From: Planctomycetota bacterium
Lineage (GTDB): Bacteria; Planctomycetota; PLA2; JAEUHO01
NCBI GenBank assembly: GCA_965222115.1
Contig: CBDCTJ010000003.1
Coordinates: 480,001 to 544,000, forward strand
Reading direction: 5' to 3'
DNA length: 64,000 bases
In this document: positions 3,580 through 62,029 of the stretch, piece after piece
Layout of the letters: each line of letters starts with the position of its first letter
Position numbering within the stretch: position 1 is the first letter of the stretch
Translations under genes and position numbers: made by a program
The notes under the pieces: generated by a model
What the model was told of the DNA's origin: nothing
What the model saw: the letters and a program-made list of their open reading frames with translations, nothing else
Database searches by the model: none

Positions 3580-4689
3580 CTACGCCTCCGGCAGGACCGT
3601 CAGTAGCAGAGCAGCCATTCGTACATGGAGGACCCGGGCTTCTTCGGCTGTCAGTTCAGACGGGACTCGGTGAACCGATTCGTCGAACAGCTTCAAGAAC
3701 GGACCCACAGCGTCGACGTCCGTGGCGACGTACTTCTGCATGGAGGCCGTTTCTTGCCTGGCAATGAAGCGAATCCTGGCCTTGCGCGTTGGCTTGCCAT
3801 TGCTGAAGTCCTTCGGGTCCGTCGACCAATCCTGAACCTTGTCATCCGGGGAGAGGGTGTGCAGCACGTATCGGAAGAGCTCGCGCAACGAGGCGCCAAC
3901 ATGGCGTGCGACATCCGGCCCGCCCGCGCTCAATGCGGCGGAGGCGCCCTCCCAAAGGCTGACGCACTCCGGATCGAGCGCTGTGAGTCGGTCCACGAGC
4001 ACCACCTCCGTCTGGTCGAGAACGAGCGTGGTCTGCGCTTCGGCATCCTCTTCGAGCTCGGGCTCGCGGTCTTCGCGGGGGAGCGTTACGACTTCGGCAA
4101 GCCGCGAAGCCACAAATCGCTCACGTGCAACGGTCGCGGCTGTCTGCAGCCGCACGTGCGTCTCAAGCGATGCTGCCCCAAGCTCCGCGAGTACGTCCGA
4201 CTCTGCAGCCCAGAGACGACCGAGTTTCGCGTCGATCTGTGTGGCGGCAGCCCAGTCTGACGGGACCAGGCCGCCAATCTTCAGCCCGGCCATCTGATCC
4301 GCGAGGCGAGAAGAGATCGACAGTGACTGCTCGAACGCAGCCAGAACTTTCGCAGACTCCGCCAACGTTGAGGCGTACCCCGGCAGCTTCGGGGTCGTTG
4401 CCTTGGCCAAGGCGTCTAGCTGGCGCTGGGATGCGTTCTGGATCTCCTGGAACTGCTGGCTGACGCGAGTCACGGAACTTGCGACCTCAATCGCCTTGAG
4501 ATTCGGAGCTGACAGCTGCTCCAAGCGCCGGGTCTGCTGGGCGATCTGCTCCACAACGTGCATTGCGCTGGCTGACTTTGCCATCTCCTGCATCGTCGTG
4601 CCAAGAAGGCGGGAGTTCTCGATCATCCTGACAAAGGCCTCGGTGGCGCGCATGTGCGCCATCAGGGCTGAACTGTCGTGCTTAGCCAC
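3580..4689 (-). CDS. Helical N-terminus plus predicted pPIWI-associating nuclease-like domain (pP_pnuc_1-like)
   Basis: C-terminal LWEGASAALSAGGPDVARHVGASLRELFRYVLHTLSPD..GKPTRKARIRFI..SVH pattern; GTG 4689 preceded by GGAG. Confidence 0.65.
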   Translation of the reverse strand: MAKHDSSALMAHMRATEAFVRMIENSRLLGTTMQEMAKSASAMHVVEQIAQQTRRLEQLSAPNLKAIEVASSVTRVSQQFQEIQNASQRQLDALAKATTPKLPGYASTLAESAKVLAAFEQSLSISSRLADQMAGLKIGGLVPSDWAAATQIDAKLGRLWAAESDVLAELGAASLETHVRLQTAATVARERFVASRLAEVVTLPREDREPELEEDAEAQTTLVLDQTEVVLVDRLTALDPECVSLWEGASAALSAGGPDVARHVGASLRELFRYVLHTLSPDDKVQDWSTDPKDFSNGKPTRKARIRFIARQETASMQKYVATDVDAVGPFLKLFDESVHRVPSELTAEEARVLHVRMAALLLTVLPEA

Positions 4690-4764
4690 GGTCTCACTCC
4701 CGGTCCTTGTGCGCCCCCGCACCGGATCATACCGGACGAAATACGGAGATGGGATGAAAAGGCC

Positions 4765-4842
4765 GGTAGCTCCTCTGTCGCGCAGTCACGGTAAACCGTG
4801 CTGCAAACAATAAACGGGCTCTACGGCCCAGGAGGAGCTACC
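4765..4842 (+). promoter_or_regulatory. Inverted repeat able to sequester the transposase RBS
   Basis: GGTAGCTCCT (4765-4774) is the perfect complement of AGGAGCTACC (4833-4842), which overlaps the GGAGG RBS before ATG 4846. Confidence 0.6.
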
Positions 4843-4845
4843 AGC

Positions 4846-5895
4846 ATGCATAAGCGTATCACCGAAACGATTGGCATCGACTTAGGCGACCGATTCTCTT
4901 GGTATTGTGTCTTAGATCAAGACACGGGGGTTCAGAAGGAAGAAGGCGAGATAGCGACAACGCGCGAATCGTTTCACGAGTTTCTCTCGAAGCACCGAAC
5001 CGCTCGAGTTGTGATGGAGGCGGGAACGCATTCGCCTTGGGCGAGTCGGGTCGTCGAAGGTCGATGTGCTCAGTCGCTAGTCGCGAATCCGCGAGAGCTA
5101 AGCTTTATTTACAGGAACGCTCGCAAGTCCGATCGAACGGATGCCAAGAAGTTGGCTGAAATCGGTCGCTTCGATCCCCAACTACTTGCCCCAATTCGGC
5201 ATCGACCGGAGTCCGCACAACGAGACCTTGCGCTGATTCGTGCACGAGCCGCGCTTGTGTCGTCACGAACCAAGTTGGTGAACTCGCTACGAGGTGTCAT
5301 TAAGAGCATGGGCGGGCGGTTGCGTAAGCAGGCATCAAAATGCATCGGATCGAAGACGCGGGCCGAGATTCCGGAGGAGCTCTGCGATGTGCTCAATCCC
5401 ATTCTCAGTGCAATCGAGCGAATCACTGAGTTGGTAAAGATCTACGACGCAAAGATCGATGAGTTGGCGAAGGAGCGATATCCAGATACACAGTTGCTCA
5501 CTCAGATTCCAGGCGTGGGCAATCTCACGGCACTCGCATTCATGTTGACCGTTCAAGATTGGGCGCGGTTTGAAGACCGCCGAGATGTCGGGGCGTTTCT
5601 CGGGATGGTTCCACGGCGTGATCAATCCGGCCAAATGGACAAGCAGCTACGCATAACGAAGGCTGGGGACCGTATGGTTCGGTCGTTGCTCGTTCAGTGC
5701 GCGCATCACATCCTCGGGCGACTGGGCCCGCCATGCGATCTAAAGTCCCACGGTGAGCGGATCATTGCGCGTGGAGGCGCAGTTGCGAAACGCAAGGCAG
5801 TCATCGCCGTGGCACGCAAGCTCTCCGTGCTCATGCTTGCGCTGTGGCGAACAGGCGAAGAGTACATACCGGTTCGATGCCCAGTGGCTGCCTGA
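4846..5895 (+). CDS. IS110 family transposase/recombinase
   Basis: DEDD RuvC-like motifs GIDLG, VVMEAG, KSDRTDA; IPGVG; catalytic-Ser motif RRDQSG; AVARKL. Confidence 0.97.
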   Translation: MHKRITETIGIDLGDRFSWYCVLDQDTGVQKEEGEIATTRESFHEFLSKHRTARVVMEAGTHSPWASRVVEGRCAQSLVANPRELSFIYRNARKSDRTDAKKLAEIGRFDPQLLAPIRHRPESAQRDLALIRARAALVSSRTKLVNSLRGVIKSMGGRLRKQASKCIGSKTRAEIPEELCDVLNPILSAIERITELVKIYDAKIDELAKERYPDTQLLTQIPGVGNLTALAFMLTVQDWARFEDRRDVGAFLGMVPRRDQSGQMDKQLRITKAGDRMVRSLLVQCAHHILGRLGPPCDLKSHGERIIARGGAVAKRKAVIAVARKLSVLMLALWRTGEEYIPVRCPVAA

Positions 5896-6264
5896 ACCTC
5901 GCGCAACAGCTTTAGGCAAGCATTAGAAAGGTCAGTTTCCACGTACCCCAATTCGAGTCCGGGTGACTGCGGTGCCCTGACCGACGTATAGCGACGTCGC
6001 TACTGAGTATGCAGCACCCAGACTCGTTCTCGGACCCCACCTTGCACCGGGTCGCATCAACTTCGATCCAACACGAGTGCGCATAGAAGCCTGAATGGGA
6101 CGTGTTTTCTGGCGCCAGTGACGATGGCTGGCAATTTGATTCGCTCCGATCCGCTGCCAGAAAGGCAAGGGCGATAAGGGTAAGTTGCGTACTCAAGGGG
6201 CCGAACTACACATGCACAACGCGGTAAATGCGCTCGCCGACGCGGCTTCGCACTTGACATGCCA
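5896..6264 (+). ncRNA. Candidate bridge RNA/seekRNA region of the IS1111-group element
   Basis: About 370 nt non-coding; hairpins CGACGT/ACGTCG (5982-5999) and ACTCGT/ACGAGT; CATAGAAG (6082-6089) equals the element right terminus (6273-6280); boundaries uncertain. Confidence 0.6.
6254..6259 (+). promoter_or_regulatory. Outward-facing -35 box (junction promoter on circularisation)
   Basis: Perfect TTGACA just inside the right IR; 17 nt later the circle junction would read GAAGAT (weak -10). Confidence 0.5.
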
Positions 6265-6280
6265 GGCCTTTTCATAGAAG

Positions 6281-6689
6281 TACGGGAAAAATCCACACTT
6301 TTCTTGTCCTTTAGGTGCGCCATGCACGCTCCTCTAGCGACGTGCAGTTCATCGATGAATTGTTCGGTCGAGATAGACGTCGCAGATGGGGCACCAAACT
6401 CTCAAGCTCTCTTTGCGCTGGGCAAGCCAGTCGAATTCGATCGCCAGCATGCCTCATGGTCATTGCAATGATCCTACTTCGTCACGTCGACATAGTCACT
6501 CGGCACGATCGGAATGACGCATAGCAGATCGCAGCGGCAACGGACGCAAACACTGTAGACTGTACACAACAAGTATCGTTGCCAATAAGTGTGAATTTGC
6601 TTCTGACGCTGTTCTCCTGCACGCAGCATTCGCGCTGTTGACTGAGCGCTGCCCTACGACAAGTGTGGATTTTTCCCGTACACCGTATT
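6281..6689. repeat. Repeat element E2; its first bases (AATACGG, 4740-4746) are displaced by the IS
   Basis: Reconstituted left end AATACGGAGTACGGGAAAAATCCACACTT vs reverse complement of 6661-6689, 28/29 identical; long left and right blocks shared with E1. Confidence 0.9.
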
Positions 6690-6726
6690 CTTGCGGAACG
6701 CGGTGCGGCGCTAGGCCACGGAGTGG

Positions 6727-7947
6727 TCAGCAGGCGATCTCCGAGACGGTCAGATTGCCTTTACCGTCACGGCAGAAGATCGTGGTGTCTCCGTCCGTGG
6801 AGACCACAAGGCCGAAAGAGTCCGAAACGCGGCTTGTCGCACATGCGATCGACTTGTGTCTCGTCCCCTTCTTGCGCGACTCCAAGAACTCCCGGACCCC
6901 AGGCGGTAGGTCGGGGTATGCATCCTCCGCAAGCAGCTTGCTGCCGACACCCAGGGGACGGAGCATGGGTCCGAGAACCACTGCCCCGTCGATGCGCGTC
7001 GCGTGGCAGAGACGCACGACCTCGTCGTCAGCCATTCGCGCCGACGTCAGCATGTGCTGGGTGTACGGATGCTTCAGTGCTGGCGGCGGCGCCGGAGGAT
7101 CGGCGGGGTCGATAGCACGGCACGCGAGCGACTCCTGCAACCCCCCCGACCAGTCATCGCCGGCCGACTTCAAGGCGTTTGCCTGGTCTACACACTTCAG
7201 TTCGTCGAGCGACGCGGCGCAGGTGACCAGTACCCCGGCGCCGCCGCCGAGTCTCCTTGCCGACCGCGCTAACTTGAGCAGGGACTGTCCCAAGCCATGA
7301 GCGATGCCAAGCAGCAACGGTGCGTCGGCACGCACGACCCAGTCGGCCTGTTCTTCCGCAGTGAACAGACTCCTATGCAGGTCGCCGGCGCGGAGTTGAA
7401 CATCCCAGCTGGAAATCAGCAGGTATGCGGGCGGGATCACCGTCCCCACTTCGATTAAGGTGGCTGGGCGTCGGCACGCCGTCTTCAGGAAGACAGCTTC
7501 ACCGTCGGCGTTCTTGACATACAGCTCCGCGACGTCCCGCAGCTCTACGACACAGCCCGCTCCCCACTCGAAGGCATGGCCACTCACGAAGTTCGCAACT
7601 TGACGGGAGACGATGCCACGGACACGAAGCCCATCGTTGCTCCCTTCGATGACGAATGCCGTCTCCCACGGATCGAAAGCCGAGCCGACTTTGCGAAGCC
7701 AGTCCACTGAAACGGAGGGCTTCTGCGAGAACTCGACGAGCAAGTTCAGTGTGGCGTCGGCGGGAAGCAGGAGAAACGACCCGCACGGCACGCGCCCCTC
7801 TTCCCGGTAGAGCCCGGTCTCGTAGAGCAGATCAAGCAACTCGGTCGTCGCGGGAGGCCACGGCAAGCGGTCACTTTCAGCGAGATGCTCTTGCGCCGCG
7901 TCGAGTAGTGACGACGCGTCAAAGCGCCGATAGCCTGCAGTAGCCAT
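6727..7947 (-). CDS. Diadenylate cyclase (DisA_N/DAC) domain protein with N-terminal DACNV-like sensor domain
   Basis: RIDGAVVL (DGA), GTRHKS (RHR-like), VVSTDG; N-terminal ETGLYREEGR; GGGAGG RBS; no TM helices evident. Confidence 0.8.
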   Translation of the reverse strand: MATAGYRRFDASSLLDAAQEHLAESDRLPWPPATTELLDLLYETGLYREEGRVPCGSFLLLPADATLNLLVEFSQKPSVSVDWLRKVGSAFDPWETAFVIEGSNDGLRVRGIVSRQVANFVSGHAFEWGAGCVVELRDVAELYVKNADGEAVFLKTACRRPATLIEVGTVIPPAYLLISSWDVQLRAGDLHRSLFTAEEQADWVVRADAPLLLGIAHGLGQSLLKLARSARRLGGGAGVLVTCAASLDELKCVDQANALKSAGDDWSGGLQESLACRAIDPADPPAPPPALKHPYTQHMLTSARMADDEVVRLCHATRIDGAVVLGPMLRPLGVGSKLLAEDAYPDLPPGVREFLESRKKGTRHKSIACATSRVSDSFGLVVSTDGDTTIFCRDGKGNLTVSEIAC

Positions 7948-8075: not shown

Positions 8076-8589
8076 AGATTCGGTGTGCGGGCGAAGTCCA
8101 CACGTTCTGTATTGCTCGGCGAAGTCAGAGGCATCTTGCCCACACGAAATGAGTGGAGGATCGGGGAAGAGTCGGAACTTCTGTGTAAGGCATGTCGTCC
8201 GATCCAAAGCCGAGAGAATGCACCGTGGCTCAACGTAAAGAAGAGCGAGCCCGTAGGCGTTACTGGTTCGAGCCCAGTAACGCACACCAACGAGTTCTCC
8301 TCCTTCTTAGCAATAGCCCAACTCACGCCATACTGGAGCCCCCCAAAATGGCAAGTTCCATGCTGCGACAAAACACGTGACCGCTTCTCAGCCACTTTGG
8401 CTGCCGAGCCGCCAACAGCTTGCGTCGACGGACTAATCTTTGGTCATTCAAATGGTGGGCTAATTTGTGGTGCGTATCAAGTCGTGTCGAATTGCCTCGG
8501 ACTGTCAAGGAAACGCTGCACTAGGCGTCCGCCCTGGTGACTGTGCGCTGTCCTACTAAAGGTGTGGATTCTGCCCGTGAACCGTATCT
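8076..8589. repeat. Repeat element E3 (diverged copy, different interior)
   Basis: Ends AGATTCGGTGTGCGGGCGAAGTCCACAC and GTGTGGATTCTGCCCGTGAACCGTATCT; last ~90 bp align with E1/E2 (CTGCAC..TGACTG..CGCTG.CCTAC..AGGTGTGGAT). Confidence 0.8.
8257..8289 (+). other. tRNA 3'-end-like fragment (T-arm plus ACCA) inside E3
   Basis: ACTGG-TTCGAGC-CCAGT T-arm, 7 nt, then ACCA; no complete cloverleaf. Confidence 0.5.
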
Positions 8590-8634
8590 TCAGAGCAATG
8601 AACACCGTTTTCGCATCCCGAAGCAAACTGTAGA

Positions 8635-9561
8635 TCACCTTCCCTGAAAGCCATGGCGCCTCATGATTTTGAGTTGCTCCAGCTGCAGTTTGTGGATCCC
8701 TTTCAGCTTAGTCTCCAGACTCGATGGATCCTGAATGAGTTTGTGCTCGAGCATATAATTCTTCCACCTCTCCGACTGGCCCGGTGACATTGTCCCAAGG
8801 TGTTCGATTAGCTTAAGAGAGTCCGTGGAGCTTAGCGTTGATCCATTTTGCTTGGCGAGTGCAACCATATTGCATCTCTGAAGATGTTTCAGAAGAGGAG
8901 TAGGTGCAATCGTTTTTTCAGTTTGGTAATTGAGCACCAACTCACGCAATTCGGAATCGTCCAACGCATTGCCAATTCGCTCTTGAACATATCGTGCGCA
9001 ATTGTTGAACAGTGCATGATAATTCCATTCAACATAGTTTTCTTCTGAGACTTCAACTCTCTTCATTGCTAGCAAGACGGAGCGCAGCATCTTGTGAACT
9101 GACCGATTTGACATTAGATCAGAAATAGACTCTTGAGTGATGTGCGTGTTCTCTCCCTTCTTCGACATCAACTGCTTCTTCCCAAACACTCTTAGGATCG
9201 AGATCGCCTCGTGATTGGCATTCTTGGGTCGTCTTCCCACGTCAATAACAAAGCTCTTCTGTTTAGCGTCAGACCCGAGGCTGACAGTGATGGCCGCATG
9301 TTCCCCATGCCCGAAGAGCCCCCTAGGATTCCACACCACATAGGCTACATTTGAGACTTCCTGTCCGGCGTCAACGCATGCGCGTAGTTCCTTTAGCGCC
9401 TTGGAAATGTTCTCCTTCGTAGTGTTGCCGTCGGGTCCCACAAATTTCTTGACCCAACGGCCGAAGTTCGAGTCACGCACTCCTGGGACAACGTGAGAGA
9501 CAAGGACTGTGAGTGCGATCAATATGACGAGCACTGCCATCCCGCGTGCAACAAGCTTCAT
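8635..9561 (-). CDS. Membrane-anchored permuted papain-like (PPPDE/LRAT-type) protein
   Basis: N-terminal TM; His before Cys: GEHAAITV ... YHALFNNCARY; AGGGGG RBS; visibly AT-richer than neighbours. Confidence 0.55.
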   Translation of the reverse strand: MKLVARGMAVLVILIALTVLVSHVVPGVRDSNFGRWVKKFVGPDGNTTKENISKALKELRACVDAGQEVSNVAYVVWNPRGLFGHGEHAAITVSLGSDAKQKSFVIDVGRRPKNANHEAISILRVFGKKQLMSKKGENTHITQESISDLMSNRSVHKMLRSVLLAMKRVEVSEENYVEWNYHALFNNCARYVQERIGNALDDSELRELVLNYQTEKTIAPTPLLKHLQRCNMVALAKQNGSTLSSTDSLKLIEHLGTMSPGQSERWKNYMLEHKLIQDPSSLETKLKGIHKLQLEQLKIMRRHGFQGR

Positions 9562-20987: not shown

Positions 20988-22211
20988 TTACTTCACCGTG
21001 GGCGCATCTTTATCGCCGGGCGACTTGCTCTCTCTTGATGAGCCCTTCGCCTCTGATGGTTGCTCCCCTTCCACCTCTACGATCCACTTGTACTCTTGCC
21101 TGGGCTGGGCATTGGTGATTCCGCTTCCGCGCGGATACATAAGAGGTGCGACAATGACATTGGATACAAATTCGCTTCCGGTGGCGTCATCGACAGGAAT
21201 GTTGGGCTCAATGTGAAATGCAAGAAACTTGCCTACGGTGCGTCCAAAACCAAGGCTCATGGGTGGCTTGGCAACTTCGGCGAGGAATGGATCTACAGGG
21301 ACCCAGCCAACGTCTTTCGCATAGAACTCGGCGCGACCGTGATAGTGGTCGGGGGTCTTCTTCGGATCCTTGTCACGAATTGCCCAGCGCCCTGCAAGAA
21401 AGCGCGCTGGCACCTTGTTGGCACGCAACACAGCAATAAAGAGCGACGCGACCGCGGCGGCATACATTCTTTTCACGGTCAGTCCGTCCGATGCGCGATA
21501 ACAGTAGGCAGCCTTTGTTGAGATTTCGTATTTCGATACAAGGTAGGAGAGTACACGCCACGCGTATGCAAGGTCGCGTTCCTTGCCACCGCGCTTCAGC
21601 CCACTCTCGCGAATCCACTTCTTCATTTTCTTGGTGCGGTAGTCATACAGCGGCGTGTCTCGAAGGTAGAGCCGCTTTTCAGCGCTCGAGAGTGACTTGA
21701 CTTTTTCGGCGGGCTCTCCGGGTTGCAAGTCCACGGGATAGAGTGCGGCGCGCATAGAGAATCGACACGAAAGCGACGACGCACTACTAGCCCGTCGCGT
21801 ATCCACTTTTGCGCGGTGGAGACGCCGCTTCCCCTTGCCGTTCTCTTCAATTTCGTCGGTCTTCCAATCGGCACCTGGATCGGGATCGCCTGCGGGTCCA
21901 AGCGATTGGTGCAGGAGGTCCTGCGTAGTTAGCTGTGGAGCGACACAGGCATACAACACCCAATCCTTGCATGTCAGCCCCGGATAGGTCGTGTGCGCGA
22001 GAACGCATGCATCCACCGTACGCGGTTTCACACGCACTAGCTGAAAGGCGCCCACAAAGATTCCATCGAAAACGTCACGAGCAGGCTGCTTAGAAGGCGC
22101 ATCATCCTTGGCGTGCAAGGGCGGCAGCGAAAGTGAAGCCACGGCAGCAAACAACATCGTTAGAAGCACGCCACGTTGTAACCTCCGGCACAGGTTCATT
22201 GGATCCCCCAA
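20988..22211 (-). CDS. Secreted transglutaminase-like protein, catalytic Cys apparently replaced
   Basis: LFIAVLRANKVPAR, HGRAEFY..GWVPVDP; Ala at the expected Cys position. Confidence 0.8.
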   Translation of the reverse strand: MGDPMNLCRRLQRGVLLTMLFAAVASLSLPPLHAKDDAPSKQPARDVFDGIFVGAFQLVRVKPRTVDACVLAHTTYPGLTCKDWVLYACVAPQLTTQDLLHQSLGPAGDPDPGADWKTDEIEENGKGKRRLHRAKVDTRRASSASSLSCRFSMRAALYPVDLQPGEPAEKVKSLSSAEKRLYLRDTPLYDYRTKKMKKWIRESGLKRGGKERDLAYAWRVLSYLVSKYEISTKAAYCYRASDGLTVKRMYAAAVASLFIAVLRANKVPARFLAGRWAIRDKDPKKTPDHYHGRAEFYAKDVGWVPVDPFLAEVAKPPMSLGFGRTVGKFLAFHIEPNIPVDDATGSEFVSNVIVAPLMYPRGSGITNAQPRQEYKWIVEVEGEQPSEAKGSSRESKSPGDKDAPTVK

Positions 22212-22669: not shown

Positions 22670-23758
22670 TCACCGCCCTCCTCGCCGCCCTCCAGGAGGA
22701 ATCCCAGGATCCGTCACGGGAATCTCCGACTCCCACGGCGCAACACCTTCACGGCGCGCGGCGCGGCGTTGGTCGCGGGTGTCTTTGGTGGCGGATTTGA
22801 ACTTTGATAGTCCCTTGTTGAACATGGCCGCGACTGATTGTTCGTTTGCCTTGGCAGTAGCGCTTTCGAGAACACTTCCGGTTAATCCGAAACGGCCTGG
22901 CTGAATGACGAATATGCCCTCTGCCTTAGGCATGTCCTTGATGGTACTTAAGTCTTTGCGATCGGAGACGACGATGTACTGCAGTCGGCCCACGAACGCC
23001 TGGCTCCACGCGAGCGTTGCAAGTGTTTTCGTCATGACGTCGCGCGTGGATTTTGACCTTGCGTAGGCGACGACGAGAGGCTGATTGTCGCAAGCGGCTA
23101 CATTGAGCGCACGCCGGAAGTCCAAACCTTGTGGTAGCGCCTTGATGGACGACTTGGGCTTGTGGCGCTTGCGATGAGCATCCAACACGGACGCCAACTT
23201 GCTTGCCTCTTTCGTGTCAACGCCCCCACCGGATGAGTCGGGAGGACCTGAGCGACGCTCCGGTGGACCACGACGCGCTCCGGTAACGCTATGGGGCCCG
23301 CGACCGGCGCGACTGAGCGGGGTCTTGCCATCGGGTGCAAGCAGCGCAAAGGTCGTGTTCTCAAGATTGCCGGAACGACCCGTGAAGATGCCCTCGAGGA
23401 ACGCACCCTCTGCCTTGTTCTCATAGGTGGCAAGTCGAACACAGATCCACTCGCGCGAAGCAGCCACGACCGTGGCATCGAACAAGACACGCTTGTCCGT
23501 CTCTTGCTTACCCGGTCACCAGATGCCGGGCGTACCCTTGCACTGCGGCGCGGCGGACGTGAGGAGAATCGGGCGACCGGTTCGTTTCGCTTCTGCGGCA
23601 GCTTCCTTCCACGTACCAAACCACTGGATCTTTGCGGCGGGGCCTGGCGTTGTCTCTTTTCGCTCCTCCTTGGCCCACGAACTGGGTGCCGCCGTCGATA
23701 CGGCGCCGAACATAATCAGTGTCAATACCGAGAATACGGGCTGGCGTTTGAAGTTCAT
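22670..23758 (-). CDS. Secreted thioredoxin-fold protein with in-frame UGA (putative selenoprotein, 362 aa)
   Basis: ORFs 23516..23758 and 22670..23485 share a frame and are separated only by TGA at 23516-23518; reads PQCKGTPGIW-U-PGKQETDKRVLFD; hairpin follows. Confidence 0.7.
23481..23508 (-). promoter_or_regulatory. Candidate bacterial SECIS element
   Basis: Minus strand AGCAAGAGACG-GACAAG-CGTGTCTTGTT; loop starts with G, 18 nt after UGA. Confidence 0.55.
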
Positions 23759-24041
23759 GAGTCATCTCCGTGAGGGGCTTAGATCCTTGGAAGCTATTCG
23801 CAGAATCTAACGAAATTCTGAAGGGCGATCGATTCGCGCGCCGAACCGAGCACCAACGGTGCTTAAACAACGGCGATCAAATCGAGTTTCGGGGAACTTG
23901 AGCATGTTGCTTGGACGATTGTGTCGTCACGCACCTCGCCCCTCTGCGTGCCTAACTCAATCCCCCAAGCGTATCCAAGGAGCCCGCCCCAACGAAGCGT
24001 TGCGATGGACCGACAAACGCGAGTCGTACTGTCGATTCGGC

Positions 24042-34247: not shown

Positions 34248-34295
34248 CCGCCCGAAATCTTGAACCATCAACCGCTCGAGCAGCGACAGAGTGGT

Positions 34296-37001
34296 ATGAG
34301 CAAGCCGATACGTCTGGTGGATTCCCTCGATCTCGCAACCCTAAGGAGCCACGACGGCTTCCTTCGGGCACTTGCGCGGGGACTCTTGATTGGCGACGTC
34401 GATGCCGACGATGTCGTACAGGACACGTGGTTGTCGGCGCTCAAGAACGAGGGGGCCGTCCGTCGACCACGAGCCTGGCTCGCGCGCGTCACACGCAGGC
34501 GCGCGATCGACCGCATACGGCGGGAACATACACGGGCGGGCTACGAGACAAGCACGCCCGGCCCACAACCCGTTCTCTCTCCTGCCGTCATCGCGGAGAG
34601 GGAAGAACTCCGGGCAAGATTGGTCGCTCGCGTACTCGCACTCCCACAACCGCTTCGCGAGGCCATTCTACTCCGGCACTATAACGGGCTCGCGCCTCGC
34701 AGCGCGGCCGAGGTCGCAGGAGTTCCGCTGGAGACGTTTCGTACGCGACTCAAGCGCGGCTATGCACGGTTGCGCGAGCAGTTTCTACGAGACGAACCCG
34801 ATCGCCGCTGGGTTTCCGGCCTCAGCGCGCTCGGCAACGTGTCGCTGGTGACGCCCGCGCTATCGCTCGGCATGTGTGCAGTTCTCTTCGGCCTCATCAC
34901 GACACTTGGACTCGTAATCGGCTATCTACTCGTCCACCGAAACACAGTCACGACCCCGGACGAAGCGTCCATACGAGAGGCCTCGGCAGATCGAGGCGCG
35001 GTACCTGATCGGGGGCCGATGCTCACGCCCGCAGTGCTTCAACAACAACGGGCGGTGAAGTCGAGCCCACCGCAGACCCGGAAGGGCTGTTGGCTTGTCG
35101 GACGAGTCAAGTCAGCGGTCGGATTTGGCAACACGCCGGTGACACTTCGCGTGCGCGACCCCAGGCAACCCGAACGACATGCGCTAACAAGCTTGAGTAA
35201 CATTGATGGCAGCGTCTCAATCGACGTGACTTCGCTCTTTCCGCAGTCGGATCCAAGGCGCTCACTTCTACAGTTGCTCGTTGAACTTGACCACCCGTTA
35301 CACATGCGAGCGTCTGTCAATGTCGAGGTATCTCGCCAGGCGCGACGCGTGGGTCGTTACCGGGAAGGACACGCGACACTAGCTCTTGAAGCCAAGCTCG
35401 AAGCAGCCTCACGGTGGGTTCGAGGCGTCGTAACGCCCCCACCCGGGATTGCGCCAGCCGACTTGCGCGTTGCCTTGCTCAGGTGGGATGTCGACGGTGA
35501 CCGTCCGTACCCATGCGCCTCGGATCACGCATCGCCAAACGATGACGGAAGCTACGAACTCCGTTCGACCACGGGAGGACGGCATGCGGTGGTCGCGTGG
35601 CCCGTGCCATCTACTACGTCCGCGTGCCTTCCAGGCCATATCTACGTGGACATCGGGCAACCAAACATCGAAGCGCCTCCGTTTGTTCTCGAAGCAGGCG
35701 ACGTTGTCGATGGACGTGTTGTCACTCGCGGTGAACTCCAGGACGGCGCGCGCCTTCATCTCGAGGCGACGCCCCGCGGCACCGGAGGAATGGCATGCAG
35801 TGACCCCGTACCACTTAAGTGGCAGCACGACTTGTTTCACATGAAGTATCGCGTCGTCCTTACGCGTCGCAACGGCTCCTTCGAGATTGCGGGCTTTCAT
35901 CACGGCCCCATCAATCTCCGACTCAAGCAAGACGTCTCGTGGAATGACGCGGTTTTACCTACCTATCGTGACGACGACGTTGAACTGCCCGAATGGTCGA
36001 TCCACGTACCAAGCGCGAATCACGAACTCGAGGTGCCACTGGAACTCTGGTTGCTACAGGTCGACTTTGATGGGATGGGCTATAGGAGGCTCGGCGTCCA
36101 CTGCGAGGGCTCGACTTTTGGCATGCACGATGTCGATGCGAAGGGGCGTACGGCGAACTTTGCGCAAGGCAACGGTAGCGTGCGCGAGCACGCCTTTCTT
36201 GCAGGAGAACTCGGGGTGGTAAAGGCAACCGTGCGGCCCGGTCAGTGGAGCCATGTTCGCTTTCGTCGTGCGGACGATCTCGGCTCGCTCAACATCGAGC
36301 TAGACGAAAACGCGGCCTCGAAGAGCGACCTGTTTCGTTTGTATCTTCGTGACGCGTCGCCAAACGGTCGCAACTGGCTTATGCGCATGCCGAGCTACGA
36401 GGCAGTTCGCCACGGGACTACGCTGAGCTACGCCAATGTGACGCCCGGAACATGGACCGGTGAACTCGTTCCGTGCTTCGGACGTGGAGCCGAGTGGAAC
36501 TCATTCCTTTGCGCGACGTTCTTCGACGTAGACGTTCCCGGTGGAGAGACGGCGCGCGTTCAAGTCACGCTTCCGGAAGGGGGCTACGTCCGAATCGAAA
36601 ATCTCCATGCCATTGCACATGCACTAGGCATTCGCGGCACGCGTTGGGCGCCCGGTAACCTACTTCGTTTGCGTATTCTGGACGACCAAGGCAAATCGCA
36701 GAAGGTGCGCTACGAAAGCACGGATCCAAAGCGCACGTTGGAGCCCTACGGGTGGCCACGGCGCCTGGATCGACCGGTGACGAGACACAGGAATGGCCGG
36801 TTTTGGCCTGCCTTGCAACCGGGGACGTACCGGCTGGAGATTCGGCGCCCCAAACCGCAGTCAAAAACTCCCCGTGTATGGGCGACAGATGACATACGGC
36901 TGCGAAACGAGGAGCTGCAAGACACCAAACCACGGTATGTCCCATTCTCAGTAGCGAAAGGAACGTGGACGGTCATTACTAGAGATCATGTTGCGCGATA
37001 A
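34296..37001 (+). CDS. ECF sigma factor fused to TM helix and large extracytoplasmic beta-sandwich region
   Basis: Region 2 ADDVVQDTW..AWL; region 4 LPQPLREAILLRHY..ETFRTRLKRG; TM; GSFEIAG/PGTY repeats. Confidence 0.85.
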   Translation: MSKPIRLVDSLDLATLRSHDGFLRALARGLLIGDVDADDVVQDTWLSALKNEGAVRRPRAWLARVTRRRAIDRIRREHTRAGYETSTPGPQPVLSPAVIAEREELRARLVARVLALPQPLREAILLRHYNGLAPRSAAEVAGVPLETFRTRLKRGYARLREQFLRDEPDRRWVSGLSALGNVSLVTPALSLGMCAVLFGLITTLGLVIGYLLVHRNTVTTPDEASIREASADRGAVPDRGPMLTPAVLQQQRAVKSSPPQTRKGCWLVGRVKSAVGFGNTPVTLRVRDPRQPERHALTSLSNIDGSVSIDVTSLFPQSDPRRSLLQLLVELDHPLHMRASVNVEVSRQARRVGRYREGHATLALEAKLEAASRWVRGVVTPPPGIAPADLRVALLRWDVDGDRPYPCASDHASPNDDGSYELRSTTGGRHAVVAWPVPSTTSACLPGHIYVDIGQPNIEAPPFVLEAGDVVDGRVVTRGELQDGARLHLEATPRGTGGMACSDPVPLKWQHDLFHMKYRVVLTRRNGSFEIAGFHHGPINLRLKQDVSWNDAVLPTYRDDDVELPEWSIHVPSANHELEVPLELWLLQVDFDGMGYRRLGVHCEGSTFGMHDVDAKGRTANFAQGNGSVREHAFLAGELGVVKATVRPGQWSHVRFRRADDLGSLNIELDENAASKSDLFRLYLRDASPNGRNWLMRMPSYEAVRHGTTLSYANVTPGTWTGELVPCFGRGAEWNSFLCATFFDVDVPGGETARVQVTLPEGGYVRIENLHAIAHALGIRGTRWAPGNLLRLRILDDQGKSQKVRYESTDPKRTLEPYGWPRRLDRPVTRHRNGRFWPALQPGTYRLEIRRPKPQSKTPRVWATDDIRLRNEELQDTKPRYVPFSVAKGTWTVITRDHVAR

Positions 37002-58420: not shown

Positions 58421-61400
58421 ATGCCAAATCCCAACCAACCCCAGCCTGCACACGCCATACTTCAGGAGCACGCTGCGGGCATTCGAGCGTTGGCGCTGCG
58501 GCTTTTGAGGGATCCTGGACTTGCCGATGACGTTGTCCAGGACACGTGGTTGGCAGCCACTGAATCGCCGCCGAACAACAGAGATAATCTGCGAGGATGG
58601 CTTTACGCCGTTTCGAAGAATCTCGCGAGCAAGCGAATGCGAAGTGAATCACGTCGAACAGCGCGTGAACGATATGTTGCCAAAGGCGAACGAATTCCAT
58701 CCACGCTAGAACTCGCCGAACGCATGGAGACCAAGCGACGATTGCTCGACGCGCTGGATGGTCTGCGTGAACCCTACCGCTCGACACTCATTGTGCGTTA
58801 CTTCGATGATCGCAAGCCACGCGAGATTGCCGCTGCCCAGAACGTTTCGGTTGCAACTGTAAAGTCACGCCTCTACCGCGGACTACTAGAGCTTCGCGAC
58901 GCGCTGGATGATTCTCACGACGGCGATCGACGCGCGTGGGCGTTACCGCTCGTGTCCATGGCTGCGACGCGTTCCGTCGGCAGTACGGGAATCACTGCCT
59001 TGCTGGGAGGAATCTTGACGAAGAAGACCACCGCGACCGTCGTCGTGCTGACTTTATTGACAGGCGGTGCTTGGGTTCTACTGCAAGACGTCACCAAGCA
59101 CTCGAGCAAAACCCTAGCGGCAGAGGACCCCCTTCATGCGCCGCCATTGCCCATTCATACGGACGAGGGGCTGGAAGTAGAGGCACCGAAGACTGAAACG
59201 CCGGTGCTTAAGCCACAGCCAAGGAAATCACTTTCGCCGCGTGGGCCAGCAACGGCGAACGTCCCCGAGCGCCGCGCGGGTGAACTGGTAGCGATCGGTC
59301 GAGTCGTAGACGAACGGCGTAAGCCACTCGAGGGCGCCATCGTCACATTCCACACGGTCAGTGGACTCGGTGAAAAGAAATCCTACACCGACGCTGCCAC
59401 GACAGCACGCGACGGCACGTTCGCCGTTGGTGGCATAGGACCTCACTCAGGAAACACTCGACTGCTCGCGACAATTCGACACGGACAACGTCGCGCGTTC
59501 GGCGGCGCCCTTGTTCGCGAAGCGTCCAGTACGCAAGTTGACTTGGGGACCATCGTTCTGCTTCCCATGCGAGCGCTACATGTACATGTGGTAGATCCCA
59601 TGGGCGCGCCGGTCGAAGGCGCGGCGATCTATGTGGAATCGATCGCGCGTTGGATGGGAGGTCTGACCCTTGCTCGTGCAGTAACCGCTTCGGGTACCAG
59701 CAATGACGAGGGCGCATGGAGCACTGGCAATCTTGCAGTAGGCGGGTACCGAATTGTTGCGAGCAAGCCGGGTTACGGCCGTGGCACGCAAGCGTGGCGA
59801 AGCGGTGAACCGGGCGAGGTTCGGGTGACGCTTGGCAAAGAACGCACACTCACGGTACGCGTGCATGATCAGCGAACAGACCAGCCCATTGTGGGCGCCT
59901 CGGTTCGCGTCGGTGAGACCTACGAGTGGATGAACACCTTTTCGGTCAGTCCCTATGTCCCGCCAATGGGCAGTTTGGTTACGAATGAGAAGGGCGAGGT
60001 CGTGTTATCAGGGCTCCATGCAGATGATTCACTGTATGTGAGCGCGACTGCGAACGGTTACCCCCGCATACCTCTCCCTCGGCATCCAGTTGCGGTTCCG
60101 CGGGACGCGGCAGAAACAACGATACGTCTCTACACGCCCCGAACCGTGCGCTGGAAGATTTCGACAACTAAGGGTGTACCGCCACCACCGGACGGAACGA
60201 TGCTCCGTCTTACGCGAACGCAAGGACGCCGAGAGTTGGCGATGCCAACGAGCGCAAGAATCGAGGGTGGCATGATTGTCGTCGAGGGGTGCATAGCGAT
60301 GCCGCTTGGATTCACCGTCGTAGCGCCGAATGGCTCCTACGCCGAGTTGTTTGTCATGGGGACAAGACATGAAGGCGGAGTAGTTCACTTTCGTCGACCG
60401 AACACGGTCAGACTCAAAGCCAAGACGCCCGACGGGAAACCTGCCGTCGGCATCTACCTATCCATGCGTACAGGTGGCAACATGGTCTATGCTCCTCCGG
60501 CCAAGACAGACGAGAACGGCCACGTCGTATTCGATGGACTTCCCCATTGGCATCAGGTGCATGTCTTTGCTGGACTCATTGACAACTCGTATGCGAGCCA
60601 CAGCGTAGGTACGATTGATCTCTCCGATGGCGAGACGGAACGAGAGATATTTGTCCCTCCCTTGGTCAACATTCACGTGCGTCCAAGCGTCGACGGCGCG
60701 CCTCGCATTCCGAATGATTACTTCGTCTTCGTAGATGACAAACCCACTGAAGTACACATAGAAGACGCGAAGAACCACTCAATCATGGTTCGCGCCTTTG
60801 TCCCTAAGCAAACTCGCGGATCGCTTTCTATGCGAGTCAAAGAACTCGCATGCGATCCCGTTTCGTTTGAACTCCCAGAGGACGACTCGCCGCTCGCGTT
60901 ATCCGTTCAGCTCTCGAGCACAAACTCGGTCACGGTGCGCGTGTTGCCGCCCAAAGACGGGAAGATGAGAATCCGCGCTCGCATGCCAAGGGCAGATCAA
61001 TCGCCTCCATTCAACTGGCAGAGGCCGCGCGCGTTTCGAGCAGAGCCAGATGGACGCGATGGTCCTTATGTTCTCTATCGTTACTCGGGCATACCCAGTG
61101 GCGCTTTTCAGGTAGGGGATGAGCTCTCCGGTGCTGCCACAAAGGTCATCGACATCAAATCGGGCATGAACTCGAACGTCATTACTCTCGATCTCAGTCA
61201 CGTCGGCGAAGTACGCGGTAGCATAACGGCACCGCCGGGTCGTCACGTGGGCTTGGCATCGATTGAGGCGAGTGGAGAGAACCTGCTGTGGGAGGGACAC
61301 AGACCATCGGGGCACAGCTTTGTCTATGAGAACAGCCGACTAGTCGCTCAAGACGGGACATTTTCAATACGAATACCCGGCGACCGCAAAGTACGCCTCT

Positions 61401-62029
61401 CTGTGAATCATCCCCTCGCGTTACCGGCGAAACAAGGCGGGTCCATTGAACTCACAAAGCCGCGCGACGGCGTGCGACTTGCGCTCGACGCGTCGCCAGT
61501 AATCCGATTCCGATTGACGCCCGAGTCACGGCCGGTCCACTCAAACACGCTGGGCGTAATGATCTTTGATGGCAAGTTGACCGAAAAGCCCCTGCGAAGC
61601 ACGCGAGTAAATGTACATCGCGATTCGACCCTACAAGTCGGAGGCATTGGCCCCGGAACCTATACGGTTGTCATCAATTCTGACGGACGAGCGCCCAAGA
61701 TCATCGAGAACGTTCGTATCGCTGGAAGCGACGTAGACCTTGGCGAACTTAGCACCGAACGAGGATCGTCGATACGAGTACGCATTCGCACCAAGTCCGG
61801 CACGAAACCACCGACACTCCAGGGAATGGCAACGGCGACGTCTCCATTTCGCTACATTCGGATGGCACAAACAACCGGAGAAGCCGAACTCGTGATCCCC
61901 GGCCTCCTTAAGGGCAAAGTACATCTGATCGTGCAACGATTCACCGGCTCGACCAGCACGACGCCCGAACTCGAGACTACAGTCGAAGTCAATGGCAAGG
62001 ATGATGTGACCGTAGACCTGGAGCTGTAG
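58421..62029 (+). CDS. ECF sigma factor fused to TM and carboxypeptidase-regulatory-like repeats (1202 aa)
   Basis: ADDVVQDTW..LRGWL; LREPYRSTLIVRYF..TVKSRLYRGL; TM; GRVVDERRKPLEGA repeats. Confidence 0.9.
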   Translation: MPNPNQPQPAHAILQEHAAGIRALALRLLRDPGLADDVVQDTWLAATESPPNNRDNLRGWLYAVSKNLASKRMRSESRRTARERYVAKGERIPSTLELAERMETKRRLLDALDGLREPYRSTLIVRYFDDRKPREIAAAQNVSVATVKSRLYRGLLELRDALDDSHDGDRRAWALPLVSMAATRSVGSTGITALLGGILTKKTTATVVVLTLLTGGAWVLLQDVTKHSSKTLAAEDPLHAPPLPIHTDEGLEVEAPKTETPVLKPQPRKSLSPRGPATANVPERRAGELVAIGRVVDERRKPLEGAIVTFHTVSGLGEKKSYTDAATTARDGTFAVGGIGPHSGNTRLLATIRHGQRRAFGGALVREASSTQVDLGTIVLLPMRALHVHVVDPMGAPVEGAAIYVESIARWMGGLTLARAVTASGTSNDEGAWSTGNLAVGGYRIVASKPGYGRGTQAWRSGEPGEVRVTLGKERTLTVRVHDQRTDQPIVGASVRVGETYEWMNTFSVSPYVPPMGSLVTNEKGEVVLSGLHADDSLYVSATANGYPRIPLPRHPVAVPRDAAETTIRLYTPRTVRWKISTTKGVPPPPDGTMLRLTRTQGRRELAMPTSARIEGGMIVVEGCIAMPLGFTVVAPNGSYAELFVMGTRHEGGVVHFRRPNTVRLKAKTPDGKPAVGIYLSMRTGGNMVYAPPAKTDENGHVVFDGLPHWHQVHVFAGLIDNSYASHSVGTIDLSDGETEREIFVPPLVNIHVRPSVDGAPRIPNDYFVFVDDKPTEVHIEDAKNHSIMVRAFVPKQTRGSLSMRVKELACDPVSFELPEDDSPLALSVQLSSTNSVTVRVLPPKDGKMRIRARMPRADQSPPFNWQRPRAFRAEPDGRDGPYVLYRYSGIPSGAFQVGDELSGAATKVIDIKSGMNSNVITLDLSHVGEVRGSITAPPGRHVGLASIEASGENLLWEGHRPSGHSFVYENSRLVAQDGTFSIRIPGDRKVRLSVNHPLALPAKQGGSIELTKPRDGVRLALDASPVIRFRLTPESRPVHSNTLGVMIFDGKLTEKPLRSTRVNVHRDSTLQVGGIGPGTYTVVINSDGRAPKIIENVRIAGSDVDLGELSTERGSSIRVRIRTKSGTKPPTLQGMATATSPFRYIRMAQTTGEAELVIPGLLKGKVHLIVQRFTGSTSTTPELETTVEVNGKDDVTVDLEL

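Follow-up and report, generated by a model that had tools for sequence, protein, structure and literature searches.

A putative exported thioredoxin-like selenoprotein of planctomycetes, split by gene annotation at a conserved in-frame TGA

A 64,000-nucleotide (nt) stretch of DNA from a Planctomycetota bacterium (assembly GCA_965222115.1, contig CBDCTJ010000003.1, positions 480,001 to 544,000; hereafter the window, from whose first letter all positions are counted) carries on its minus strand, at 22670..23758, a long reading frame broken by a single in-frame TGA. Judged from this sequence and those of its relatives, it is very probably one gene for an exported thioredoxin-like selenoprotein, in which the UGA at codon 81 would specify selenocysteine (Sec) and a hairpin shortly after it would act as the bacterial Sec insertion sequence (SECIS). 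The UGA is conserved, a covarying hairpin of SECIS type follows it, the frame is translated continuously across it, Sec pairs with Cys at the nucleophile position of the thioredoxin (Trx) fold, and the N-terminus is signal-like. From these features we infer SelB-dependent insertion of Sec, export through the secretory (Sec) pathway and a redox role in the periplasm.

Gene structure and conservation of the in-frame TGA

An earlier note on this DNA, made without database searches, had described an 80-residue frame that ends at TGA and continues open for 281 more codons, and the minus-strand sequence reads just so: 80 codons with a signal-like N-terminus run from the ATG at 23758 to the TGA at 23518..23516, and the same frame then stays open for 281 codons, up to a terminal TGA at 22672..22670. 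When the internal TGA is read through, the whole gene (22670..23758, minus strand) comprises 362 codons plus the terminal TGA (22670..22672), with Sec as codon 81, and its product has 362 residues. A GGAG (23766..23769, minus strand) stands 7 nt upstream of the ATG (23758..23756); by inspection it resembles a Shine-Dalgarno sequence and may serve as one. Ordinary gene calling returns two products, a piece of 80 residues and a piece of 271 residues, the latter in a frame with a TTG start at 23485 (22670..23485, minus strand), which equals the protein-database prediction P0002 and which we regard as an artefact of the split.

Relatives were collected by a genome scan with one genome per species, which found 96 stretches encoding them, and the best 80 were kept as loci. 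In two of these (L056 and L079) the contig ends before the site is reached, and the codon comparisons cover the window and the remaining 78 loci, that is 79 sequences, 76 of them distinct. The codon homologous to the internal TGA (23516..23518, minus strand), the proposed Sec codon in W-U-P-G-K, is TGA in 79 of 79 and TAA or TAG in none; the terminal stops of the same 79 genes are TAG in 33, TGA in 26 and TAA in 20. In the four codons after it (+1 to +4, P-G-K-Q) the first two positions have entropies of 0-0.76 bits, the third 1.05-1.63 bits. Being almost fixed at the former and free at the latter, these codons carry the signature of a translated frame.

The earlier note had proposed a search for homologues with either Cys or a conserved TGA at this column, and both were found. 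Alongside the 79 TGA-bearing sequences there are eight homologues without a stop at the Sec column, seven of which have Cys there (P0018, P0145, P0182, P0190, P0259, P0260 and P0261). A quick tree places the Cys forms among the Sec forms. Parsimony needs three changes of the Cys label on this tree and its well-supported branches force only one, so that independent changes from Sec to Cys are not demonstrated, tree support being too weak to count them. The unbroken homologues also vary elsewhere: in most Cys forms Cys223 of the C-terminal domain is replaced by Ala and the C-terminal motif is altered, P0145 is extended at its N-terminus by a part that gives weak EF-hand matches (best E 3e-5; 23.8 bits vs the Pfam cut-off of 25), and P0019, the single form with Leu, has a long N-terminal extension.

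UGA is an ordinary stop codon elsewhere in the window. Thirteen of the 33 reading frames in the window end in TGA (32 of the 33 have a Pfam match, one has none), and so do 26 of 79 family genes, so that the codon is not reassigned. On both strands of the window there are 61 sites where a single TGA is flanked on either side, in the same frame, by 60 or more open codons; none of them was conspicuous by eye.

The SECIS-like hairpin

The 55 bases from the TGA onwards align without gaps in the 79 sequences (column 1 is the T of TGA). A helix that joins columns 20-28 with columns 32-40, 17-37 nt past the UGA, has standard pairs in 91.6% of cells, while in a control with the partners slid by 1-3 columns pairing is 30-54%. 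Compensatory changes, on both sides of the helix, occur in 8 of the 9 pairs, and of 500 column shuffles not one equals the helix on any of five measures. Left unaided, RNAalifold proposes the core of the same helix, with compensatory changes in all 6 of its 6 pairs. G29 and U30, at the start of the loop, are at least 90% conserved. Moreover, third-position entropy over codons +6 to +11 is 0.24-0.77 bits, against about 1.1-2.0 elsewhere, which points to a constraint on the RNA.

In the window the hairpin reads CGGACAAGCGTGTCTTGTTCG (23479..23499, minus strand); it has 8 pairs, all of them standard, and a 5-nt loop (23491..23487) with the conserved G-U at 23490..23489. Zhang and Gladyshev's model of the bacterial SECIS, as summarised in the legend of Fig. 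2 of PMC13188914, describes a loop of 3-9 nt, a stem of at least 4 base pairs, a G as the first or second loop nucleotide, a spacing of 16-37 nt from UGA to loop, and a minimum free energy of at most -7.5 kcal/mol. Agreement with all four published criteria is found in 74 of the 79 sequences. The window hairpin agrees in loop, stem, G and spacing, with its loop 24 nt past the UGA. The helix is retained although the residues encoded here in the window depart from the consensus of the family. A covariance model and a sequence-only model, both built from the 78 other sequences with the window excluded, score 44.4 bits (E 5e-15) and 27.4 bits, respectively, at the window hairpin, which is the sole covariance-model match with E <0.5 in the 64 kb. 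Family members score 30-68 bits with the covariance model, and over the loci it matches only at the family's own sites and at the cut copy in L056.

The earlier note had expected a SECIS-like hairpin, and in this it was right, although the stem it chose is a different one. Its 11-base-pair stem with one mismatch (23481..23508, minus strand) is present in the window and forms part of the predicted minimum-energy fold, which is itself ordinary for the stretch (z = -1.37; equalled by 20 of 200 shuffles). In the family alignment its partners are paired in 70.7% of cases vs 70.1% after shuffling, and its covariation score is reached by 114 of 500 shuffles. It overlaps the conserved helix, the two being mutually exclusive, and has no support from covariation.

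Export signal, domains and active site

By a simple hydrophobicity rule, 78 of the 79 members have a hydrophobic segment after the start codon, and the one that has none is truncated where its contig ends, in keeping with the exported protein that the earlier note had proposed. The N-terminus of the window protein (residues 1-29; 23672..23758, minus strand) resembles a signal peptide, with a basic start, a hydrophobic core and an S-W-A end. The catalytic domain that follows (about residues 44-160; 23279..23629, minus strand) is interrupted by the TGA and is recognised as Thioredoxin_7-like through Pfam, through its relatives and through a profile match to TXNDC12/ERp18. Fifty of 56 family members match Thioredoxin_7 (PF13899) at E<=0.01, and in the Cys form P0260 the match reaches 27.1 bits vs a cut-off of 27 over residues 50-137, that is 88 residues vs 80 profile positions, and spans the Sec site.

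The profile match to TXNDC12/ERp18 is weak (E 0.14); it sets U81 opposite the first Cys of C-G-A-C and reveals an insertion of 8 residues just before the active site. The earlier placement of Sec at the first Cys of the Trx motif agrees with this alignment, as it does with the invariable TGA and the seven Cys homologues. The inserted loop carries Cys73 (TGC, 23540..23542, minus strand), a candidate resolving residue in a C-x7-U arrangement. Both this Cys, at codon -8, and the Lys at +3, which had been picked out from the window alone, are conserved in the family, each in 71 of 76 distinct sequences and in at least 90% of the alignment. A classical CxxC of thioredoxin or DsbA type is not present, the second redox Cys at +3 being absent. 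Cys106, Arg108 and Glu117 are invariant and Asn134 nearly so; in the weak TXNDC12 match Asn134 falls at or beside the usual place of the cis-Pro. A subgroup of the family (L044, L045, L047, L050 and L052) has W-U-K-G-K in place of W-U-P-G-K, and its upstream Cys is displaced by 1-3 residues.

A linker rich in Gly, Pro and Arg (about residues 156-200; 23159..23293, minus strand), longer in the window than in most aligned relatives, leads to a second conserved domain at the C-terminal side (about residues 205-335; 22754..23146, minus strand). It contains N-V-A-A-C-D-x-x-P-L, of which N219, D224, P227 and L228 vary little or not at all. Beyond it lie the motif W-E-x-E-I-P-V-T-D-P-G (22703..22735, minus strand), with W342, P347 and D350 nearly invariant, and a basic tail rich in Arg and Gly. 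This second domain has no Pfam match. The earlier note had taken it for a second Trx-like repeat, a claim that the sequences do not support: comparison of the N- and C-terminal domains with hhalign gave a probability of 0.6%. In the stored model of a truncated homologue the C-terminal domain resembles thioredoxin-like and UAS-type models with template-modelling (TM) scores of 0.40-0.52, a weak structural lead only. A profile search of the PDB with the alignment of Cys forms returned spurious matches only.

Family extent and split annotation

The tblastn matches in the 80 loci extend across the TGA. Nearly all of these loci bear planctomycete labels, and a few records are labelled Verrucomicrobiota, Omnitrophota, Armatimonadota, Vulcanimicrobiota, Melainabacteria-type or proteobacterial; the family is widespread and mostly planctomycete. 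Protein databases present it in pieces. A search with the read-through protein gave 162 relatives among the candidates scored, and all but 2 of the best 120 cover no more than 76% of the query and have lengths of 220-278 residues, which means that they start just after residue 81. An exhaustive profile-free search found 729 representative clusters (E<=0.001), 156 of which reach E<=1e-30, and among the best 150 only 3 have a match that crosses residue 81. Conversely, residues 30-81, used as query against short proteins, matched 36 N-terminal pieces that are 67-114 residues long, and 9 of the 9 retrieved end in G-x-W, one residue before the TGA. In the ESM Atlas, approached through the homologues P0048 and P0260, truncated relatives cluster as 'hypothetical proteins' without Pfam annotation, and in a 373-residue cluster Thioredoxin_7 is found in 43% of members.

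The earlier note had foreseen that standard annotation would split the gene, and in two annotated genomes the halves are indeed adjoining NCBI locus tags (DWQ01_19720/DWQ01_19725 and OER88_12110/OER88_12105). The two 'hypothetical' frames are very probably one gene, split at the Sec codon by public annotation in every record examined. Recognising the family would mend hundreds of gene models (cf. the 156 representative clusters at E<=1e-30) and would give planctomycete selenoproteomes an abundant extra member.

Several assemblies hold two copies of the family (L020 and L037, L008 and L044, L009 and L047, L010 and L050, L013 and L052), and the 64-kb window holds no paralogue of the selenoprotein gene. 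In L036 the frame is broken 65 codons past the Sec codon and L075 stops shortly after the hairpin; these may be decaying copies or assembly errors.

Alternative explanations

Several observations weigh against a Sec-containing protein at this locus. The 64-kb window contains no selA, selB or selD and no tRNA-Sec, and no tRNA-Sec was found in the loci either. One unbroken homologue, P0019, has Leu at the Sec column. No Rfam family matches the hairpin stretch, or any other part of the window; the isolated window hairpin, at -7.3 kcal/mol, falls short of the -7.5 limit by 0.2, and a competing local fold in the window is more stable than the conserved hairpin. The window protein scores 14.9 bits (E 0.03) with Thioredoxin_7, below the gathering cut-off of 27, which, given that relatives score better, marks it as a divergent relative and not a scoring member of PF13899. 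Over the 80 loci there is no conserved neighbour gene, and genomic context therefore gives no hint of function. Lastly, the earlier note had named a conserved start of the downstream part as a sign that this part is a gene of its own, and the finding is divided: an ATG that overlaps the hairpin stem lies six codons past the TGA in 61 of 79 sequences, where it is a possible internal start and explains the point at which gene callers restart, and it is absent in 18 of 79, including the window.

If that ATG were the true start, the TGA would be a true stop between a gene for a secreted 80-residue peptide and a separate gene for a protein of about 270 residues, exactly the split that gene callers predict in the window and in relatives. 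We consider this extremely improbable, since the two parts never differ in frame and are separated by TGA in every case (79/79), the four codons between TGA and ATG are conserved at the protein level with free third positions, and 18 of the 79 sequences would lack the start; in addition, a single Thioredoxin_7 domain spans the break, the Cys forms are continuous, and the downstream piece would be left without a signal peptide and without the first strand of its fold. Read-through of UGA without selenium, by near-cognate insertion of Trp, Cys or Arg or through a reassigned UGA, with the hairpin as a mere stimulant, would fit the fact that Sec machinery was not seen in the window. It would also fit the nucleotide next to the UGA, which in at least 90% of sequences is a C and so makes for a weak termination context. 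This too is improbable, if a little less so: UGA is a normal stop here (13/33 window frames, 26/79 family genes), 7 of the 8 homologues without a stop carry Cys, the residue that commonly pairs with Sec, a thioredoxin fold has its nucleophile at just this place, and the hairpin fits the SelB-type SECIS model down to loop G-U and spacing. Moreover, PMC4807772 (including Table S8) records planctomycetes with full sets of sel genes, which makes the Sec trait plausible at the level of the phylum.

A different doubt concerns the window copy alone, which could be decaying or not expressed within a family of genuine selenoproteins. Its hairpin belongs to the weakest energy class (-7.3 kcal/mol), its covariance score of 44.4 bits is lower than that of most members, and the protein carries a long low-complexity insert; yet both halves are open over their full length with all family-invariant residues kept, compensatory changes have preserved each of the 8 stem pairs along with the loop G-U, and a relative has an 80-residue N-terminal piece that is 90% identical over the part compared and has the same end point, so we hold decay to be very improbable. 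The remaining alternative touches function only. Instead of a thiol-disulfide oxidoreductase, the protein might be a peroxidase of glutathione-peroxidase or peroxiredoxin type, in which peroxide oxidises Sec and Cys73 resolves it. A single Sec, Lys and not Cys at +3 (at least 90%) and a distant resolving Cys would suit such an enzyme, as would the apparent replacement of the cis-Pro, whose place is taken in the weak alignment with TXNDC12 by E133/N134, of which N134 hardly varies in the family. Asn134 may resemble the catalytic Asn of glutathione peroxidases. Nonetheless, no glutathione peroxidase or peroxiredoxin family of Pfam or NCBIfam matches the window protein at E<=1, homology is detectable only to Thioredoxin_7 and DUF255-type domains, and at the cis-Pro the alignment could be off by one or two residues. 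We regard a peroxidase as a live alternative, though a rather unlikely one.

Proposed mechanism

Under the selenoprotein reading, the ribosome would read the UGA at codon 81 as selenocysteine, with the hairpin 17-37 nt downstream recruiting SelB loaded with Sec-tRNA. The predicted product is a 362-residue precursor made up of a Sec-type signal peptide, a divergent Thioredoxin_7 domain, a linker, a second domain and the C-terminal motif, in which Sec would replace the nucleophilic first Cys of CxxC and Lys would stand in the place of the second. In the periplasm the target of the selenolate would be a disulfide in the substrate, or else some other oxidised form of sulfur or oxygen; Cys73 may resolve the resulting adduct by forming an intramolecular selenenylsulfide, and a reductant would recycle the enzyme. 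C-x7-U within the thioredoxin fold of an exported enzyme with a single Sec would be a new arrangement of the active site.

More tentatively, the family might be the founder of a class of redox enzymes in the periplasm that depend almost obligately on selenium, in which a Thioredoxin_7 fold without the second CxxC Cys and without the cis-Pro runs an intramolecular C-x7-U selenenylsulfide cycle in an inserted loop, next to a second, Trx-like substrate domain and on substrates outside the known Dsb and peroxidase systems. Taken as a whole this picture is somewhat doubtful. If true, an almost obligately Sec-dependent class would explain why pipelines that rely on Sec/Cys pairs missed the family.

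Genomic surroundings

Directly downstream of the selenoprotein gene lies a transglutaminase-like gene (Transglut_core, E 1.9e-11; 20991-22211, minus strand), which is a neighbour in none of the 80 related loci. A transglutaminase-like gene is also recorded inside the Sec-insertion operon of one planctomycete, with a homologue in another (PMC4807772, Fig. 6 legend and Table S8). In L020, ARAGORN calls a 97-nt 'tRNA-Cys (gca)' at 8541-8637, where Rfam finds no tRNA; this is probably a false call. Elsewhere in the window, 3583-7947 holds a predicted pPIWI-associating nuclease (pP_pnuc_1, E 2.5e-20) together with a transposase of the IS110 family and a frame that encodes a DACNV sensor domain, which may form a small defence islet; no match to Argonaute/PIWI was found among the window frames scanned. 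Two large proteins of 913 and 1202 residues (34260-36998 and 58421-62026, both plus strand) combine N-terminal sigma-70 regions 2 and 4 of the extracytoplasmic-function (ECF) type with a large, extracytoplasmic-looking remainder that includes Big_1 and CarboxypepD_reg domains.

Comparison with known families

Full-text literature searches found no description of the family. It is not described in the passages considered from PMC2398784 (GOS), PMC12013277 (deep-Sep) and PMC5029168, nor in the passages on BSepDB in PMC13326102, a comparison outside which the BSepDB family table lies. None of the 119 prokaryotic selenoprotein families in Table 1 of a May 2026 review has its motif or architecture. 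Table S9 of PMC4807772 gives, for one planctomycete, one 'hypothetical' and two 'thiol-disulfide isomerase-like thioredoxin' candidates for split genes, listed without sequences, which may belong to this family. Detection methods that depend on Sec/Cys pairs (described in PMC12013277) are poorly placed to find a family with so few Cys forms, only 3 of the best 150 representatives crossing the site.

With the bacterial SECIS consensus the family hairpin shares its place within the coding sequence and a loop of 3-5 nt that starts with G then U and lies 24-25 nt from the UGA; it differs in being a short, simple helix of 8-9 pairs that no Rfam family matches, and the copy in the window lies 0.2 kcal/mol short of the energy limit. 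Among curated protein families, the sole NCBIfam match of the window protein is NF041199, at 13 bits vs a cut-off of 300, so that it is not a member. NF041199 is the Trx7/PDZ domain-containing (seleno)protein with a CxxU motif (Table 1, PMC13188914). Both are bacterial selenoproteins built on a Thioredoxin_7-type domain, and 18 of 56 members of the family here match the first ~60 profile positions at E<=0.01 (best 8.4e-4). However, the family scores 13-18 bits vs 300 and has no PDZ match; its Sec comes first in the motif with Lys at +3, whereas Sec comes last in CxxU; and it has the 8-residue Cys-bearing loop and another C-terminal domain.

The VPGUxxT families NF041382 and NF041383 are likewise Trx-like selenoproteins with a V-P-G stretch just before Sec, and they are weakly matched by 2 and 3 of the 56 members, respectively (E ~0.002). 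These matches reach about 17 bits vs cut-offs of 350 and 275, the window protein is unmatched and not a member, and here x-W stands between V/T-P/S-G and Sec (G-x-W-U), followed by P-G-K and not x-x-T. TXNDC12/ERp18 and other PF13899 proteins (PDB 1sen, 2k8v) share with the family the fold, by profile, and the order of its elements; they are redox proteins of the secretory pathway or exported ones, and U81 aligns with their first active-site Cys. In contrast, theirs is a Cys within a CxxC pair, without an inserted loop, in a single-domain protein. Compared in this way by published descriptions and profiles, and because no curated family or catalogue checked lists it, we rate the family as a new selenoprotein family of a well-known kind, the thioredoxin fold, with a mechanism that is not new.

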